From Bdellovibrionales bacterium (GTDB lineage Bacteria; Bdellovibrionota; Bdellovibrionia; Bdellovibrionales; UBA1609), in contig CBDHDF010000004.1 of NCBI GenBank assembly GCA_965261545.1, positions 131,105 to 195,104 of the forward strand: a stretch of DNA of 64,000 nt, in the 5' to 3' direction. Shown here piece by piece: positions 5,023 through 61,077 of the stretch. A program made the position numbers and the translations under genes. The stretch's first letter is position 1, and each line of letters starts with the position of its first letter. A model generated the notes under the pieces. The model had not been told where the DNA came from, made no database searches, and worked only from the letters and a program-made list of their open reading frames with translations.

Positions 5023-6935
5023 CCCGAGTTTGACAGCAGCATCTGCGTCAAACGAATGATATTAAAGGATTAACGCATATAGTTGTATTTTGTTTATCCA
5101 CACTTGTGGGCATTAAGGATTCTGGGAGGGATGGGGACGCCTGCGGCTTTAAATAAGGAGTTGGCATTGCCAGTGATATCTGTGCGGGTCCAAATGACTT
5201 GATCACGAATTTTAACAGGGATAGCCCTAACTTCCTTGAGTTCCCTCATGGCCTCTACAACAGTTAAAGGTCGCTCTTTAACATGACCAATGCCTATGGC
5301 TGGGCTTTTTAGGTTCATCTTCTTATCTCTTAAACATTTTGTAAGGTGGGCCTCACAAAGATAAGTTAAAAAGCATAGAGTTAAATGTCCAATAATCCTC
5401 TGGTCTGTCCAATGGAAAACAGGACGTGTTTTCAAAGTCCCTTTTAACTCACCAAAAGCATCTTCAATTTTCCACAATTCTTTGTAGTTGATAATAATCT
5501 CATCTGCCGTCAAGTCTTTGACATTTGTAAGGACGGCAAAAAAACCATCAATTTTTTCATCTAATTCTATTTGTTCTGCATTTAATTCAGGTTTTTTATT
5601 TTTGTCGTCAGCCATCTTTACATATTTCTTATAACCTTTATTGGAAACAAAAGTACTAGACTGAACACCTTTAGAAGATAGTTTTCCTTCGATCTTTTCA
5701 AGAAGGGATTCTCTAGATTTTTTATCTCTCTCTGCTCTTTTCCTAGACCAAGTCACAATACATCTATGCCCCCCATGGTCTGTTTCGTAAACAGCAAGCT
5801 CATTCTCATATACCCAGCTAAAACGATTTAAATCATAGACCTCTTGTTTCTTTTCTTTTTTTAAAGATCCAAGCTTCATACCAACAATAAACTCGCTTTG
5901 ATCCTCACTGAGTTTGTCAGTATTAGCCTTTGATAAAAGCCCCCTATCAGCCACAAAAATGAAACGGCGTACATTAAACTTTTTTCTCATTTTATCAACA
6001 ATATCTGAAAGCGTCTTGCCTTCAAAAGTATTACCAGGGAAAACCTCAAAACCTAAAGGGATGCCATCCCGATTCACCAACAAACCAAAGACAACTTGGG
6101 TGCAGTCTGATCGTCTCTCTTTACTATAGCCAAATTGACGAAGTTTCCCTAAGTCTGTTCTTGTACTCTCGAAGCGTAAGGTTGTTAAATCATACAACAC
6201 AATGTCTACTTGGAAATTAAATAAATCTCGCCCCACCCAATAAAGCGAGTTCTCTATTTCATCCTTATGGGAGGCAAGTAAGTCCATAGACCGATAAATA
6301 TGCTGGAGACTCAAATCACCCTTAATCATGTCTGGGTAAAAAGATTTTTGCCAATACTCAAAAACCTTTAACTTGGAACTAGGAGCAATAAATCGGCTGG
6401 CAACTAAGGTAAAAATCACCTTACATAAATCAAATTGAACTTTCTCATGAGAATCTTTTATGTCTTTGAGGGTCTTATTGATACCCAGTTGATCAAACAA
6501 CTTTTGTAAAATCAGCAAGGGACCCAAAATGAAAGTCTCTTCGATGTAAAGCTCCTTAGCCAATTGACTCACAGTGAGAAGCTCTCGGTGGCGGGATACG
6601 GCCTGCGCCAAACTATTAATCTTATCCTCTCCTCCTTCTCCAGCCTTACCTAAGGACATGAGCATGCGTTTTTTGGATTTGCCTTTTTCTCTGTAGGACT
6701 CCACAAGGTGGTAGTAGCACTGACCTTTTGAGTTTTTAGTCGTTTGGATGTACATGAGGATATTTTCTACATATTTCTATGATATATCAATATTTAAAAC
6801 GATAAAATCCTATTTTGTTTTCTACACTTTTTTTACGTCAATTTTAATTTTTCCAGCAGCTACCATTATATTTCAGTACAACCCCAATTTCTGGAAATTT
6901 CGCATTTTAACGCAGATGCTGCTGTCAAACTCGGG
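5023..6935 (-). mobile_element. IS1634-family element, copy 1 (1913 bp), no flanking target duplication
   Basis: 26-bp terminal IRs CCCGAGTTTGACAGCAGCATCTGCGT; near-identical to copies 2 and 3. Confidence 0.93.
5094..6755 (-). CDS. IS1634-family DDE transposase
   Basis: YDLTTLRFE, FGYSKERRSD, VFPGNTFEGKT, VADRG and YKELWKIEDAF...RPVFHW motifs. Confidence 0.93.
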   Translation of the reverse strand: MYIQTTKNSKGQCYYHLVESYREKGKSKKRMLMSLGKAGEGGEDKINSLAQAVSRHRELLTVSQLAKELYIEETFILGPLLILQKLFDQLGINKTLKDIKDSHEKVQFDLCKVIFTLVASRFIAPSSKLKVFEYWQKSFYPDMIKGDLSLQHIYRSMDLLASHKDEIENSLYWVGRDLFNFQVDIVLYDLTTLRFESTRTDLGKLRQFGYSKERRSDCTQVVFGLLVNRDGIPLGFEVFPGNTFEGKTLSDIVDKMRKKFNVRRFIFVADRGLLSKANTDKLSEDQSEFIVGMKLGSLKKEKKQEVYDLNRFSWVYENELAVYETDHGGHRCIVTWSRKRAERDKKSRESLLEKIEGKLSSKGVQSSTFVSNKGYKKYVKMADDKNKKPELNAEQIELDEKIDGFFAVLTNVKDLTADEIIINYKELWKIEDAFGELKGTLKTRPVFHWTDQRIIGHLTLCFLTYLCEAHLTKCLRDKKMNLKSPAIGIGHVKERPLTVVEAMRELKEVRAIPVKIRDQVIWTRTDITGNANSLFKAAGVPIPPRILNAHKCG

Positions 6936-51872: not shown

Positions 51873-52463
51873 ATGTCATTTATAAACTATAATGCCAAAG
51901 AAATTCACTGTAAGATTGTTTACTATGGACCCTCTCTCAGTGGCAAGACAACGAACTTGCAATGGGTTTATCACAAGACGAATGCTCAAGAGAAGTCCGA
52001 TCTCATTGAGCTGCCCACAGATATTGAGCGAACTTTGTTCTTTGATTTTCTTCCTATTGAGGTTGGCAAGATACGGGGTTTCGATACAAGGTTTCACCTC
52101 TACACTGTTCCTGGGCAGGTGGTGTATGATGCCAGTCGTAAGCTCATTCTCAAGGGCTTAGATGGCATTGTCTTTGTCGCAGATTCCCAGGAAGAACGCA
52201 TGGAAGAAAACATACAGTCTCTTAAGGACTTAAAAAATAATCTTGATCTTCAGGGCTATCAGATCAAAGAGCTTCCTCTTGTTATTCAATACAATAAAAG
52301 AGACCTTTCCAATGCCCTTTCTTTGGCGAAGCTAAGAAGTTCTCTCAACTTTTACAATTCCCCTGATTTTGAAGCTACGGCTAAAGATGGAAAGGGTGTC
52401 TTTGAGTCGCTAAAAACTGTTTCAAAGTCGATTATTACTGTTCTGAAGGGTGGTCATATCTAA
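51873..52463 (+). CDS. mglA: Small Ras-like GTPase MglA
   Basis: MSFINY...KIVYYGPSLSGKTTNL, RTLFFDFLP, TVPGQ and NKRD motifs. Confidence 0.93.
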   Translation: MSFINYNAKEIHCKIVYYGPSLSGKTTNLQWVYHKTNAQEKSDLIELPTDIERTLFFDFLPIEVGKIRGFDTRFHLYTVPGQVVYDASRKLILKGLDGIVFVADSQEERMEENIQSLKDLKNNLDLQGYQIKELPLVIQYNKRDLSNALSLAKLRSSLNFYNSPDFEATAKDGKGVFESLKTVSKSIITVLKGGHI

Positions 52464-54188: not shown

Positions 54189-54886
54189 GAAAAGCTAAAG
54201 GTTTTTAGTTCATGACTCATAGGCAGAAAAAAAGACGCATCCTTTTTTTGGACCCCTTGACTTGAACTGAGAATAAAAGGTCAATACGCCGCTCATTGCC
54301 CTCTTCATCTGTAAAGACAGTTATTTCTGGTTTGAGAGTTTTCCAGTTAAAGAGCTTAAACTCCTGTGTCGTCAAGACAAGACGGAAAATATCCAGGCAA
54401 TGTGTGCCACGAAGTCACGGAGGTGACATGCTGATGTGAAGATGGAGGTAGGTCCTCCGCACTCGGATTTCAGGATTTGAGTGCAAACAACCTTGCTGCT
54501 GCATGGGAGGCAAGGCCCTTGTAGTGAGCGAGCAAGGAAAAGGCCGTAGTAAACGGTCATGTAAGTACTAGGGAGATGAGCGAAAGCAAACCCACCGACG
54601 ACGCATCGAAAGATTAACAGTCGCGTCAAAACCGAAGGAAGGTTGTCTCCGTCGGGATAAGTCTAGAGGAAGCCTGATGACCGATCTAGACGGCGTGCGG
54701 TGTATAGGGGGCATGAACCTAGTACAGGCTTCGTATCGGAACGTGGGAACCTGCTGGTGGATGATAAGGGAAACGCTATAAGGGAGACCCCCGAAGTGCT
54801 AAATACCGATGCCACCAACCAGGGGCAGAGTGATTCGTAGTAGTGATGAAGTTCTTGTAATGAGAATGGAGCGAAGGGGTCACATG

Positions 54887-55016
54887 ATTTATGGAAGTAG
54901 TCAGGCCAACTTGGTTATGCTGAGGAGGAGCCTAATGAAACGGAAAATCATAGGAGCCGTGTGAGGGGAGACTTTCAAGCACGGTTCTGTGAGGGGCAGT
55001 GGGGGAAGTTCCCACT
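54887..55016 (+). repeat. 130-bp target-site duplication of IS1634 copy 2 (left copy)
   Basis: Repeated at 57578-57707 with one mismatch (A54929 vs G57620). Confidence 0.93.
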
Positions 55017-55087
55017 CCCGAGTTTGACAGCAGCATCTGCGTCAAACGAATGATATTAAAGGATTAACGCATATAGTTGTATTTTGT

Positions 55088-56749
55088 TTATCCACACTTG
55101 TGGGCATTAAGGATTCTGGGAGGGATGGGGACGCCTGCGGCTTTAAATAAGGAGTTGGCATTGCCAGTGATATCTGTGCGGGTCCAAATGACTTGATCAC
55201 GAATTTTAACAGGGATAGCCCTAACTTCCTTGAGTTCCCTCATGGCCTCTACAACAGTTAAAGGTCGCTCTTTAACATGACCAATGCCTATGGCTGGGCT
55301 TTTTAGGTTCATCTTCTTATCTCTTAAACATTTTGTAAGGTGGGCCTCACAAAGATAAGTTAAAAAGCATAGAGTTAAATGTCCAATAATCCTCTGGTCT
55401 GTCCAATGGAAAACAGGACGTGTTTTCAAAGTCCCTTTTAACTCACCAAAAGCATCTTCAATTTTCCACAATTCTTTGTAGTTGATAATAATCTCATCTG
55501 CCGTCAAGTCTTTGACATTTGTAAGGACGGCAAAAAAACCATCAATTTTTTCATCTAATTCTATTTGTTCTGCATTTAATTCAGGTTTTTTATTTTTGTC
55601 GTCAGCCATCTTTACATATTTCTTATAACCTTTATTGGAAACAAAAGTACTAGACTGAACACCTTTAGAAGATAGTTTTCCTTCGATCTTTTCAAGAAGG
55701 GATTCTCTAGATTTTTTATCTCTCTCTGCTCTTTTCCTAGACCAAGTCACAATACATCTATGCCCCCCATGGTCTGTTTCGTAAACAGCAAGCTCATTCT
55801 CATATACCCAGCTAAAACGATTTAAATCATAGACCTCTTGTTTCTTTTCTTTTTTTAAAGATCCAAGCTTCATACCAACAATAAACTCGCTTTGATCCTC
55901 ACTGAGTTTGTCAGTATTAGCCTTTGATAAAAGCCCCCTATCAGCCACAAAAATGAAACGGCGTACATTAAACTTTTTTCTCATTTTATCAACAATATCT
56001 GAAAGCGTCTTGCCTTCAAAAGTATTACCAGGGAAAACCTCAAAACCTAAAGGGATGCCATCCCGATTCACCAACAAACCAAAGACAACTTGGGTGCAGT
56101 CTGATCGTCTCTCTTTACTATAGCCAAATTGACGAAGTTTCCCTAAGTCTGTTCTTGTACTCTCGAAGCGTAAGGTTGTTAAATCATACAACACAATGTC
56201 TACTTGGAAATTAAATAAATCTCGCCCCACCCAATAAAGCGAGTTCTCTATTTCATCCTTATGGGAGGCAAGTAAGTCCATAGACCGATAAATATGCTGG
56301 AGACTCAAATCACCCTTAATCATGTCTGGGTAAAAAGATTTTTGCCAATACTCAAAAACCTTTAACTTGGAACTAGGAGCAATAAATCGGCTGGCAACTA
56401 AGGTAAAAATCACCTTACATAAATCAAATTGAACTTTCTCATGAGAATCTTTTATGTCTTTGAGGGTCTTATTGATACCCAGTTGATCAAACAACTTTTG
56501 TAAAATCAGCAAGGGACCCAAAATGAAAGTCTCTTCGATGTAAAGCTCCTTAGCCAATTGACTCACAGTGAGAAGCTCTCGGTGGCGAGATACGGCCTGC
56601 GCCAAACTATTAATCTTATCCTCTCCTCCTTCTCCAGCCTTACCTAAGGACATGAGCATGCGTTTTTTGGATTTGCCTTTTTCTCTGTAGGACTCCACAA
56701 GGTGGTAGTAGCACTGACCTTTTGAGTTTTTAGTCGTTTGGATGTACAT
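55088..56749 (-). CDS. IS1634-family DDE transposase
   Basis: Protein identical to copy 1. Confidence 0.93.
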   Translation of the reverse strand: MYIQTTKNSKGQCYYHLVESYREKGKSKKRMLMSLGKAGEGGEDKINSLAQAVSRHRELLTVSQLAKELYIEETFILGPLLILQKLFDQLGINKTLKDIKDSHEKVQFDLCKVIFTLVASRFIAPSSKLKVFEYWQKSFYPDMIKGDLSLQHIYRSMDLLASHKDEIENSLYWVGRDLFNFQVDIVLYDLTTLRFESTRTDLGKLRQFGYSKERRSDCTQVVFGLLVNRDGIPLGFEVFPGNTFEGKTLSDIVDKMRKKFNVRRFIFVADRGLLSKANTDKLSEDQSEFIVGMKLGSLKKEKKQEVYDLNRFSWVYENELAVYETDHGGHRCIVTWSRKRAERDKKSRESLLEKIEGKLSSKGVQSSTFVSNKGYKKYVKMADDKNKKPELNAEQIELDEKIDGFFAVLTNVKDLTADEIIINYKELWKIEDAFGELKGTLKTRPVFHWTDQRIIGHLTLCFLTYLCEAHLTKCLRDKKMNLKSPAIGIGHVKERPLTVVEAMRELKEVRAIPVKIRDQVIWTRTDITGNANSLFKAAGVPIPPRILNAHKCG

Positions 56750-56918
56750 GAGGATATTTTCTACATATTTCTATGATATATCAATATTTAAAACGATAAA
56801 ATCCTATTTTGTTTTCTACACTTTTTTTGCGTCAATTTTAATTTTTCCAGCAGCTACCATTATATTTCAGTACAACCCCAATTTCTGGAAATTTCGCATT
56901 TTAACGCAGATGCTGCTG

Positions 56919-57566
56919 GTGTGCCCAGCACAATATAGGAGGTAACGACTATAGAAAGCTGACATGATGATGGTGGTAGGTCCACCGTTCTCGATTTACA
57001 GGAATTGGGAACAAACAACCCTAAGCTGCGCAGGGGGCAAGACCTGGGTGGTGAGCGTTAGGGAAAAGGCCAGAATAACTGGTCATGTGTAGTCTGTGAA
57101 GATGAGCGAAAGCGAACCATCGATGAGGCGTCGAAAATGCGTTAGTTGCTGTCAAAACCAAGGTCCCGGTAGTACCTTGGGATAAACTCGGAAGGTACCT
57201 GATTACTGGCCGAGTGGCAGCCGGCGTAAAAGGTGGCATGAGCACAGACTTGGCGTCGTGTTGGAACTGGGGAACCTACTGGTGGATGTTAAGGGAACGG
57301 CTATAAGGTGGAAACCGAAGGGCAAATACCGATGACACCAGATAGGGGCAGAGAGACTCGTAGTAGTGAAGAAGGTTCTGTAACGGAGCTGGAGCGAAGG
57401 GGTCTCCTAATATGTGAGGAAACACTAACCAGTCGGACACTCTGTGGTCCATTTAAATGGTTTACAATAGTGGAACCTCGCAAATATTAGAGGAGCCGTA
57501 TGACGGGAGACTGTCACGTACGTGTCTGTGAGGGGCAGTGGGGGAAGCTCCCACTGTCTACTCGAT
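56919..57566 (+). mobile_element. ORF-less group II intron B (RmInt1/class D-like, 648 nt) inserted in the IS1634 terminal inverted repeat
   Basis: 5' GTGTG; DV 57493-57526; 3' end CTACTCGAT. Removing it restores the IR exactly, with no duplication. EBS1 and EBS2 are complementary to the IR. Confidence 0.92.
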
Positions 57567-57577
57567 TCAAACTCGGG

Positions 57578-57707
57578 ATTTATGGAAGTAGTCAGGCCAA
57601 CTTGGTTATGCTGAGGAGGGGCCTAATGAAACGGAAAATCATAGGAGCCGTGTGAGGGGAGACTTTCAAGCACGGTTCTGTGAGGGGCAGTGGGGGAAGT
57701 TCCCACT
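57578..57707 (+). repeat. 130-bp target-site duplication of IS1634 copy 2 (right copy)
   Basis: Matches 54887-55016. Confidence 0.93.
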
Positions 57708-58316
57708 GCCTACTCGATATCTCTCATTCAGGAAAGTTTCATTGAATAGTGTTAGCTGACAATTAAAATGCCCCACCGTCGCCAATGAAAAGTGGCCACT
57801 TTTCAGAGGAGGACCTATGGTGATTTTTGGCATTGTCAACCGAGACGCATATAATCAATTGATATTACTCATAAAAAGGCTCCGAGCTGATAAGAACTCC
57901 TTTTGGGTTCTTGTCGACCTGGAAAGGGGCTCCGTGTTGGAGAGTCCTTCCATGACAGCCTATTCAGGTTCCATATTTCTCCTTTGTAGACTGTTTCTGG
58001 ATTTCAATGAGGTTAAATATATAGTCAAGAAAAGCCTGTTTAGGCTGTGCCCATTTTCTAAAGTATTTAAATTCCACAAGATTCCAACATTTGCCTCAAT
58101 TTTCATGGAATTTCTTTCTGAAGACAGGCTTCCCTTAAAGCCGTCGCCAATTAAAATGTCCCACTTTCAATATGGAGGTTGTCGCCAATGAAAAGTGACC
58201 AATCTTCAGGGAGTGTTCAAATACTAGACAATGAAGTCTCTTCTTCTGATATAGATACTAAGCTCACAGAGTCCCTCCCTTTTGCAACTCAAAAGGTTAG
58301 CAATGAGGAGGATCTT

Positions 58317-59783
58317 ATGATTAGTCAATACACTTTCGGCCGCATTCGTGACCTGAGTCACAGTGGTAAAAATAAGACAGAAATATCTCGTGAATTAGGG
58401 ATCAATCGTAAGACGGTGCGCAAGTACTGTGAGTCCAACACCCCACCGAAGTACAAGGCGAGGTCCAAAAGAACTCGCCCAGATCCCCTTAATGGATATA
58501 TGGATCGGGTGAAGTACTTTTTGAAGTTGAACCCAAGTAACACCGCCCGTGAAATATATGAGCTATTAGTTGAGGAGGGTTATCGTGGGAGTGAGAGAAC
58601 GGTTCAGAGAAGAGTTTGTGAGATTCTTGGTTCTCGCCCCAAGGAGCGTTTTTTCAGCCAAAGATATGATCCTGGAGAACAGGCTCAGTTTGATTTTAAG
58701 GAGAAGGTTGCTTTACCATTTGCCGATGGTGTTCAGATCGTTCATCTCCATTTTGGAACATTGCCTTGTAGTGGCACCTGTTGGGTTCGTGCCTACCCCT
58801 TTCTTGTCTATGAGTGTTTCATCGATGGGGTGCATGCTTTTTTTGAAAAGATAGGTGGGATGAGTGCGAACATCCGTATTGATAATTTATCTCCCTGTGT
58901 GAAGAAAGTTCTTAAAGGAAATCAGCGAATTTACACCCAATCTTTTGATCGAGCCATCCAATACTATGGATTTAAGGTTCTTCCCTGCCGCGCAGGGAAG
59001 GGCTCTGACAAGGGAGATGTGGAGCGTGATATTCGAACCTTCAGTTCTCGGATAAAAAATATTGTTAGAAACAAAGGAATTGTTTTTAAAGACTGGGATC
59101 ATTTGAATCAGTTTTTAGAGTCTTATATGGATCAGCATCAGAGTGACTCCACCAAATCTCGCTTTGAGGAGGAGGCCAAAGTTCTTAAGCCTTTGCCTCC
59201 ACGAGATGAAGATATTCTCTGTAAGGTGAATATTTGTCAAAGTAATGGTTATGGGACTTTGAGAATAGGTAAAACCACATATTCCATACCTGATGAGGTG
59301 ATCCAATCTCCCTGTAAAACCGTACAGGGTCCCTATCATGTCACGATCTATCGTGCAGGAGGGAAGCAAGAAATTGTCGCTCGCCATCAAAGAAAACCTG
59401 ATGGGGAGCATAGTCTTCTTCTTGAACATATCCTTCCCTCTTTAGTTCGTAAGCCGCAAGCCATGGTAAGATGGGCTCACCGATCCATTCTTTTTCCAAC
59501 AAATGTGTTTGAAAATTTTTATCAATACCTCAAGCAACAAGATTCAAGCCGTGCCGAGCATGAATATTTAAGAGTTATCAACTTGATTCAGCATGTGAGT
59601 TGGCAGGACTTATCTACAGCCATGGAGCTTCAATTAGAAAGTCGTGAGATTTTCGACTTTAAATCCATAAAAGATTTGCTCTTAGGCAATCCCACCAAAA
59701 TTAATTTGAATGACCAACAAAAACCACTTCAACCTAGATTGTCTCAATATGACAGTCTTGTTCCAAACATAGGAGGTTCTTAA
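58317..59783 (+). CDS. istA: IS21 transposase IstA
   Basis: HTH (EISRELGINRKTVRKY), PGEQAQFDF, DN and KGDVER motifs; GAGGAGG RBS before ATG 58317. Confidence 0.92.
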   Translation: MISQYTFGRIRDLSHSGKNKTEISRELGINRKTVRKYCESNTPPKYKARSKRTRPDPLNGYMDRVKYFLKLNPSNTAREIYELLVEEGYRGSERTVQRRVCEILGSRPKERFFSQRYDPGEQAQFDFKEKVALPFADGVQIVHLHFGTLPCSGTCWVRAYPFLVYECFIDGVHAFFEKIGGMSANIRIDNLSPCVKKVLKGNQRIYTQSFDRAIQYYGFKVLPCRAGKGSDKGDVERDIRTFSSRIKNIVRNKGIVFKDWDHLNQFLESYMDQHQSDSTKSRFEEEAKVLKPLPPRDEDILCKVNICQSNGYGTLRIGKTTYSIPDEVIQSPCKTVQGPYHVTIYRAGGKQEIVARHQRKPDGEHSLLLEHILPSLVRKPQAMVRWAHRSILFPTNVFENFYQYLKQQDSSRAEHEYLRVINLIQHVSWQDLSTAMELQLESREIFDFKSIKDLLLGNPTKINLNDQQKPLQPRLSQYDSLVPNIGGS

Positions 59784-60565
59784 TGAATCACGAAGAACTT
59801 ATAGGTTCTCTTAAAAAACTCCGACTTCCAGCGATGGCGGATGAATATGTTGCAACGGCTAGAGTTGCCGAAAAAACAAAAAAGACGTATGAACAGTATT
59901 TAGGTATACTCGTTCAAAATGAGCTTGCTGACAAGCATTCCCAGAGAGTGAAAAGATTGCTTAAGGGGGCCAAGCTTCCTCAACTTAAATCACTCCAAAC
60001 TTATAACTTCCAGAAAAGAACGGGAGTGACAGCTCAGCAAATTAATTGGATGGCAGAGGGAGAGTGGGTCAGAAAAGCCTGTAATGTTGTGTTTTACGGA
60101 AGCTTTGGAATGGGGAAAAGTCATTTGGCCATGTCCCTAGTTCGTTCACTCTGTGAACAAGGCTATCGATGTTTATGGGTCACCACTCATGAACTTATTG
60201 AAACAATGCGTGAAAGCAAGAAAGAACTCTCATTGAATGCTCTTTTTAAGAAATTAGACCGTTTTGATCTTATTGCTTGTGATGAACTTGGCTATACAGC
60301 TTCCTGCACAGAGGGTGCTGATCTTTTCTTTCAATTCATATCTCAGCGATATGAAAGGAAAAGTCTCATGATCACTACAAACTTAACTTACTCTGAATGG
60401 GATAAGGTGTTTCTTAACCCTATTACCACCGCTGCTGCTGTTGATCGAATTATTCACAACTGTGAAACCCTCAACATTGAAGGAAAAGAAAGTTGGAGAA
60501 CCGAATCGGCAAAAGCCAAGTCTAAACAGAGCAAAGAGGAAAGTTCAACCAAAGAAGTTCATTAG
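59783..60565 (+). CDS. istB: IS21 AAA+ helper ATPase IstB
   Basis: LRLP, GSFGMGKSHLA, DELGY, RYERKS and ITTNL motifs. Confidence 0.94.
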   Translation: MNHEELIGSLKKLRLPAMADEYVATARVAEKTKKTYEQYLGILVQNELADKHSQRVKRLLKGAKLPQLKSLQTYNFQKRTGVTAQQINWMAEGEWVRKACNVVFYGSFGMGKSHLAMSLVRSLCEQGYRCLWVTTHELIETMRESKKELSLNALFKKLDRFDLIACDELGYTASCTEGADLFFQFISQRYERKSLMITTNLTYSEWDKVFLNPITTAAAVDRIIHNCETLNIEGKESWRTESAKAKSKQSKEESSTKEVH

Positions 60566-60592
60566 AGATCCCCACTTTTGGGGAAGGAACTC

Positions 60593-60690
60593 GCCAGTTA
60601 TCCACAAAATTTATCCACAGCAGCACTGCGTTGCTAGACATCGGGGTCACAGCCGCAGTGTCGCCATGGATAAATTTATGGATAACTGGC
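60593..60690. repeat. Long imperfect inverted repeat containing DnaA-box-like 9-mers, inside the IS21 right arm
   Basis: Arms at 60593-60630 and 60654-60690; TTATCCACA at 60598 and 60611. Confidence 0.8.
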
Positions 60691-61077
60691 TTTTACCGTA
60701 CTATTTGCTCGTCACTCTCGCGGAGCTTTAGACATTAGCTGCGCCAAGGAATCCTGAAAAATACTCCATTTACCTCTGCCATAGGGCTGAAGGATGCATT
60801 TGGGGTCATGCCAAAAGTGGTGGGCAGAAAATCATTCCTCAGAATCTTGTGGCATAGTCCGAGTTAAATGATGAGCAAAATAAAGACACTTGACTAAACT
60901 CTGAACGAAGAATAACTAAATCAGTACATCATCAACTGGCCGTTTTTCATTGGCGACGGCTTCTAAAAATGGCCAATTTTAATTGGCGCCTAACAAATAG
61001 AGCATTGTGGGACTGAGACTGTTGTTTTCTTTTTTCTGAGGTTTTCTTTGGCGGCAATGTCAGTCTTTCAAGTTAAG

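Follow-up and report, generated by a model that had tools for sequence, protein, structure and literature searches.

An ORF-less class D-like group II intron occupies the ends of IS21- and IS1634-family elements in a Bdellovibrionales genome

The window analyzed here, a stretch of 64,000 nt from a contig of a Bdellovibrionales bacterium, contains a small group II intron, intron B, which interrupts the left inverted repeat of an IS1634-family element. Most copies of this intron elsewhere in the genome are in IS21-family elements. Intron B is a two-target intron and not an IS1634 specialist, and the data do not rank the two targets firmly. Intron B probably belongs to the non-autonomous group IIB introns of class D, retrohoming with an RT acting in trans and using one guide set for the ends of two IS families. 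An RT supplied in trans would allow its movement by retrohoming. The wobble-rich guide set (EBS1, EBS2, and EBS3) would read a motif common, at 16 of 17 nt, to the IS21 right-arm palindrome and the IS1634 inverted repeats, with a slide of EBS2 by one base fitting the guide to both targets. Abundance of the IS ends, about 155 sites, and a low cost to the host may have allowed intron B to settle a few of each kind, and its entry into the left IS end probably immobilized this IS1634 copy. Several points stand against this explanation, among them that no intact class D IEP was found in the assembly and that domain V of intron B contains two triad mispairs; moreover, independent insertions could be feigned by recombination between IS copies.

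Two Rfam models identified the intron (Table 1). The D1-D4 model RF01999 matched at 56972-57087 with 93.4 bits and the D5/D6 model RF00029 at 57491-57566 with 43.4 bits, compared to a cut-off of 40. Intron B begins with GTGTG and ends with AT, in agreement with the group II start (GUGYG) and end (AY), and possesses domains V and VI, the latter of which folds. The fold z-score of the intron was −5.6, better than that of 20 of 20 shuffles. The longest open frame comprised 65 codons in sense and 84 codons in antisense direction, so a class D IEP with its C-terminal motif is not encoded. Domains DI to DIII aligned at 67 to 69% with plasmid introns carrying ltrA, and the core P-x-LF-x-HW of the class D motif was present in 10 of the 12 long homologs among the matches listed. 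Since its class can be read from the RNA only, intron B was filed as ORF-less class D-type, and its sequence supports an assignment as an ORF-less, non-autonomous, class D-like intron.

Intron B is positioned antisense to the IS1634 transposase. Positions 56904-56918 represent the inner 15 bp of the left inverted repeat, and this repeat of 26 bp is cut by the intron into 15 and 11 bp. The sequence-only reading had described an ORF-less group II intron that splits the IS1634 inverted repeat exactly, which was borne out by the Rfam matches, the ORF check, and the reconstituted repeat. The A-run containing EBS3 has one A more in the window copy than in the other B copies and in the run contigs. 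A weak match to the target pattern of the intron itself was present inside intron B at 57141-57157; an insertion of intron B into intron B was not seen.

Table 1. Coordinates of intron B, its exons, and the surrounding mobile elements in the window
Feature	Position	Strand	Basis
Intron B, 648-nt ORF-less group II intron with class D (IIB)-type RNA	56919..57566	+	RF01999, RF00029, precise copy junctions, no long ORF, alignment with class D introns
Id3 stem-loop of intron B, bearing EBS1 (57167-57173)	57158..57180	+	MFE fold; IBS1 partner placed there in 51 of 55 homologs (among the matches listed)
EBS2 (TGCGTTA) of intron B; 7 bp with IS1634 left repeat, 6 bp with IS21 site	57138..57144	+	Position homologous in 55 homolog sets (among the matches listed); duplexes
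A-run of intron B with EBS3 (57229)	57228..57231	+	Sequence
Domain IV of intron B, cut down to an 84-nt stem-loop, without ORF	57407..57490	+	Fold; ORF check
Domain V of intron B	57493..57526	+	Fold; homolog domain comparison
Domain VI and 3' end of intron B	57528..57566	+	Rfam; fold
5' exon of intron B: IBS2 TAACGCA (56902-56908), 3-nt linker, IBS1 GCTGCTG (56912-56918)	56902..56918	+	Sequence
3' exon of intron B: IBS3 (T57567) and outer 11 bp of IS1634 left inverted repeat	57567..57577	+	Copy junctions
IS1634-family element, 1913 bp without intron B; transposase 56749-55088, 553 aa	55017..57577	-	NF033559; many near-identical copies
Left copy of 130-bp target duplication made by IS1634	54887..55016	+	Sequence comparison
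Right copy of 130-bp duplication, 1 mismatch; restores intron A 3' end	57578..57707	+	Sequence comparison
Intron A, related ORF-less class D-type intron, 626 nt uninterrupted, holds IS1634 and intron B	54402..57718	+	Rfam; copy junctions
IS21-family element (istA, istB)	57750..60995	+	NF033546 and NF038214 above cut-off; copy extents
Palindrome downstream of istB; vacant intron B target at 60617/60618, - strand	60593..60690	.	Site type that most B copies occupy elsewhere

Seven 5' junctions of intron B were found in the genome. Five of them were in IS21-family elements, in the palindrome at the right end: four downstream of istB in the main IS21 and one at the same place in a variant IS21 arm. 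This right-arm site is located about 380 bp from the tip of the element. The other two junctions were in IS1634 repeats, the left repeat in the window and an 80-bp right-end remnant at C2:910161 with 88% identity to the family. All junctions were precise and without duplication, at seven 5' ends and six 3' ends, which speaks indirectly for splicing or reverse splicing activity. The full copies differ at few positions, yet they occupy four distinct target sequences: IS21, the IS21 variant, the IS1634 left repeat, and the IS1634 right-end remnant. Near-identical copies with good EBS-IBS pairing at distinct sites are what characterizes a mobile ORF-less intron, and the copies are not all in the inverted repeats of one IS as would be the case for an RmInt2-like intron.

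The fourth main-IS21 junction belongs to a B/A chimera whose 3' flank is foreign. The chimeric intron at C2:463512-464144 is composed of the 5' half of intron B and the 3' half of intron A, has mismatched flanks, and was probably generated by recombination between both introns. An extra 3' junction of intron B was present in a repeat-protein gene; in the paralogs of this gene, the IBS1 is good but the IBS2 is poor. At C10:509088-511248, a B copy is interrupted in antisense orientation by an RT-encoding intron of another type. In a low-depth run from another study, IS1634, IS21, and intron A were covered and intron B was not, which says nothing about an absence of intron B.

Vacant sites were numerous, with 56 in IS21, 18 in the variant IS21, 36 at left and 38 at right IS1634 ends. 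One vacant IS21 site, not mentioned in the sequence-only reading, is only 3 kb away from intron B (Table 1). The five other IS1634 ends in the window, with tips at 5023, 6935, 55017, 61142, and 63054, were vacant as previously described, including the right repeat 55017-55042 of the interrupted element. The IS21 right-arm palindrome at 60593-60690, with the B site in its arm, contains TTATCCACA 9-mers, and the IS1634 right end contains one; these 9-mers may be DnaA boxes. Concerning the bias for the lagging-strand template that class D introns should show, four of the seven B sites were on the G-rich strand, a count to be read against a scrambled skew and a genome with 45% repeats.

Evaluation of the EBS and IBS motifs was based on homologs fetched by a conserved domain I pattern, which yielded at least 112 loci; 66 were parsed, resulting in 55 distinct EBS sets. 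The best partner of the exon positions −1 to −7 was 5 nt before the 3' anchor of Id3 in 51 of the 55 sets among the matches listed, and CGGTAGT occupies the same place in intron B. The mean pairing score was 5.44 for EBS1 compared to a permutation maximum of 2.38, and 4.02 for EBS2 compared to 3.19, using 300 exon permutations each and the matches listed; because the homologs are related, no p-value was assigned. The EBS3 position paired with +1 in 11 of the 15 homologs with a located 3' end among the matches listed, with 10 Watson-Crick pairs and 1 G-U pair. The other 4 of these 15 listed homologs resemble mis-hits of the pattern, yet were scored as misses. All six 3' junctions of intron B had a T at +1. 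This is the IIB arrangement of EBS1, EBS2, and EBS3 pairing. Because homologous introns use these anchored positions for pairing with their exons, the three predicted EBS positions, which the sequence-only reading had assigned by analogy with RmInt1, stand, including the coordinates of EBS1 (57167-57173), its partner IBS1, the EBS2-IBS2 pair, and the A at 57229.

The linker between IBS2 and IBS1 comprises 2 nt at the IS21 site and 3 nt at the IS1634 site. The EBS2 register, which is the EBS2 offset minus the linker, is 2 at the IS21 site, the commonest value (13 of 27 well-paired homologs among the matches listed), and 1 at the IS1634 site, the second commonest (5 of 27, same matches). With RNA:RNA as a proxy, the EBS2 duplex had −7.8 kcal/mol with the IS21 site versus −9.2 kcal/mol with IS1634. 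Tabulation of the flanks placed most copies in a target unrelated to IS1634, but the pairing was not better there.

The match between the IS21 and IS1634 targets is without wider homology. Descent of the IS21 arm and the IS1634 end from one ancestral sequence was rejected, since the similarity is limited to the 17-nt motif. Such a shared motif is rare for one pair, with 1 occurrence in 3000 shuffles and 9 in 4243 genome windows, albeit for a pair picked post hoc amid many IS families, so that chance is possible. The three IS21 insertions that kept the istB side were in three different IS21 haplotypes, each of which was also found in a vacant version, and this points to separate insertions. The differing haplotypes also ruled out passive spread of a single IS21::B copy, with the caveat of gene conversion. 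The sequences support two independent insertions into an IS1634 repeat.

IS21 may be the true homing site, with the IS1634 insertions being rare ectopic events at a chance look-alike, and this reading can be held tentatively. It agrees with the majority of the copies, with the commonest EBS2 register among the homologs listed, with a shared motif that does not extend into homology, and with the 3' junction in the repeat-protein gene, which indicates that intron B goes ectopic. However, the difference in occupancy, 5 of 79 sites for IS21 compared to 1 of 75 for IS1634, was not significant (Fisher p = 0.21, or p = 0.44 when the remnant was counted), and the pairing is equally strong at IS1634. 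The distinction is largely a matter of degree inside the explanation preferred here, that of one guide set serving both IS ends.

The sequence-only reading had regarded intron B as a non-autonomous intron parasitizing the IS1634 end. An ORF-less intron that twice inserted precisely into IS1634 agrees with this, but IS1634 as the specific host does not agree with five of the seven junctions being in IS21. A specialist parasite of IS1634 ends that restrains this element is thus unlikely, even though two independent insertions are in IS1634 repeats, one of them in an old remnant, the longest EBS2 helix is that with IS1634, and the site is present at both ends of each IS, giving 75 sites. Only 1 of these 75 family-type ends is filled by intron B, the IS1634 copies are 99.6 to 99.8% alike and numerous, and IS1634 entered intron A twice. 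Because 74 ends are vacant and the family is young, numerous, and able to enter intron A, the former suggestion that intron B limits the spread of IS1634 is not supported. For the single copy in the window, the end is probably disabled, as its outer 11 bp and inner 15 bp are now apart; splicing cannot repair DNA. Creation of a promoter at the junction was considered and rejected, since a single 9-of-12 match was at chance level (14 found versus 8.1 ± 3.0 expected).

Retrohoming of intron B in trans would need a helper. All 23 RF01999 matches in the genome were intron A or B. An intact class D RT (IEP) gene was not found in the assembly, which is 96.8% complete and contained only four class D pieces, broken by IS insertions, frameshifts, and a stop. 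An intact related IEP in the same genome, as in the case of TeI3, was thus not present. The four pieces had 50 to 58% identity to a class D IEP and 98.6 to 99.7% DNA identity among themselves. Because of this high identity, the class D intron that encoded them may have been mobile recently, in about the same period as intron B. This class D intron of the genome, now in IS-broken pieces, was most likely the past helper of intron B. Its remnant RNA is too far from intron B to appear in a BLAST search with intron B. The available part of PMC4615759 describes cross-support between class D introns of 72% identity, and a foreign class D IEP that spliced RmInt2 but mobilized it on a chimeric target only, not on the natural target.

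Alternatively, intron B may have been moved by the intact group II RTs of other classes in this genome, which is quite improbable. Several complete frames of 435 to 495 aa pass TIGR04416 and all class D pieces are broken; intron A exists in many 100%-identical copies at several unrelated sites. However, these RTs do not contain the class D C-terminal motif and none exceeds 40% identity to a class D IEP. The broken class D copies are of an age at which they could have served as helper, and the assembly is 96.8% complete. We know of no cross-class mobilization of group II introns. Just as little credence is given to the bolder version, a protein-less intron with an atypical domain V and a guide set selected for the ends of two unrelated transposon families that is still moving via a group II RT from a different class. 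Repeats with an identity of at least 90% make up about 45% of the assembly, and 30 RT matches were counted.

The host element of intron B in the window belongs to the IS1634 family, as indicated by a transposase with 385 bits on NF033559 (cut-off of 100), terminal inverted repeats, and direct repeats. Across 22 intact IS1634 copies, the direct duplications were 37 to 409 bp long in 16, 8 bp in 1, and not present in 5. For IS1634 and IS1549, the accessible text of PMC2266710 gives long variable direct repeats of 8 to 514 bp; the long duplications found here agree with this, and they are a trait of the host element and not of the intron. That this IS1634 is itself inside intron A was not contained in the sequence-only reading. 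Intron A interrupts a 275-bp repeat, of which about 20 uninterrupted copies exist. Owing to the intact 130-bp duplication, we infer that intron A entered the 275-bp repeat, IS1634 then entered intron A, and intron B then entered the left IS end. A 3.6-kb contig of one public run joins 54399 to 57717, so that the nest is missing from some DNA of this run, which may be the source sample and not independent. An artefact of assembly or of recombination between repeats is hardly credible as the origin of the junction: the genome is rich in repeats, the B/A chimera at C2:463512 exists, and no run contig listed bridges the IS1634-B junction, but the exact 26-bp repeat returns once intron B is removed, the 130-bp duplication is intact on both sides, and a second, different IS1634-type site contains intron B with the same precise junction.

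Further observations were made around this nest. Pieces of the 275-bp repeat, split by intron A and IS21, are at 54227-54401, 57719-57749, and 60996-61064, with copies clustered on C2. Many copies of intron A are 100% identical, and they are spread over at least eight target sequences; its main target site was occupied in 8 of 67 cases. Head-to-tail pairs of intron A are at C2:405046/405672 and C11:525126; its EBS3 is U, as in RmInt2, for which head-to-tail pairs are published. Reciprocal nesting was seen at C2:237193-239106, C11:778574, and C11:377079, comprising an IS1634 inside intron A, an intron A that interrupts the transposase gene of IS1634, and a domain VI fragment of intron B beside an IS1634 end. 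A 196-aa ORF at 51873-52463 near recR and nadA has Pfam matches to Arf/Ras-like small GTPases (PF00025, 38 bits).

The AGC triad of domain V of intron B is intact in its letters, but its 3' strand is a variant, and in the MFE fold the G and the C face G and U and are unpaired. All six B copies have this variant. Among the matches listed, the same form was present in 1 of 25 distinct homolog domains, that of an ORF-less tandem intron on the Neochlamydia plasmid NZ_AP017978.1. Since the variant occurs in a multi-copy element and in two lineages, it may be tolerated. A pattern for the domain V variant matched none of 400 phylum genomes. The plasmid region NZ_AP017978.1 2434-4367 contains three head-to-tail ORF-less introns with differing EBS sequences in a transposase region.

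A search by DNA for close relatives of intron B gave no match in 60 related genomes, and one of 100 family genomes had an RF01999 match, a decayed fragment. An EBS1-specific pattern matched nothing in viral contigs, and the D5-D6 pattern of introns A and B matched nothing in genome or metagenome contigs. An ORF-bearing ancestor was not found among the matches listed for the related, family, and phylum genomes and the viral, genome, and metagenome contigs. ORF-less class D-type introns accounted for 3 of the 15 homologs with both ends located among the matches listed. The introns on the plasmids NZ_AP017978.1 (Neochlamydia) and CP157007.1 (Methylomonas) are ORF-less, of similar length, and about 69% identical to intron B on the DNA level, but their EBS sequences and targets differ; the Neochlamydia intron shares the 3' strand of domain V with intron B.

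Three published systems are comparable. RmInt2, a class D intron of Sinorhizobium meliloti GR4, has its copies in the ISRm17 inverted repeats and uses a shifted EBS2 and a 2-nt linker (PMC4615759, in the part available; see also the accessible part of PMC5894124). Both introns target IS inverted repeats and the IS21 site of intron B also has a 2-nt linker, but RmInt2 encodes its own IEP with all copies in ISRm17 repeats, whereas intron B has no ORF, inserts at the ends of elements from two unrelated IS families, and differs by an A as EBS3 and a low occupancy. The ORF-less TeI3 introns of Thermosynechococcus elongatus are mobilized by an IEP in trans and resemble intron B in the deletion of the domain IV ORF, in divergent EBS families, in insertion into mobile elements, and in a retrohoming in trans that we infer for intron B; intact and closely related driver IEPs are present for TeI3, according to the visible part of PMC2882425, whereas the sole same-class IEP here is broken and its RNA distant. 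RmInt1 is likewise a class D intron in an IS, the IS630-family ISRm2011-2, and was proposed to limit its spread, but it is autonomous, while intron B is in non-coding ends and fills few of those of IS1634 (available part of PMC5894124). Within the titles and abstract beginnings searched, a group II intron in IS1634 was not found. Targeting of IS inverted repeats by introns (PMC4615759) and a control of IS spread by such introns (PMC5894124) are already in the accessible parts of these publications, so that intron B adds a case to a known behavior. It departs from the earlier cases in two modest ways, by using a single guide set on two IS families and by its rare type of domain V.

Intron B represents a clear natural case of a small protein-less intron that spreads among the ends of IS elements and needs only one guide set for two unrelated families of them. 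The single filled end out of 75 argues numerically against a restraint of the host IS by such introns. As a compact system, intron B allows one to test how flexible the EBS2 register is and whether IEPs are shared in trans. It would matter much more if its unusual domain V turned out to be active, or if the RT that moves it belonged to another class.
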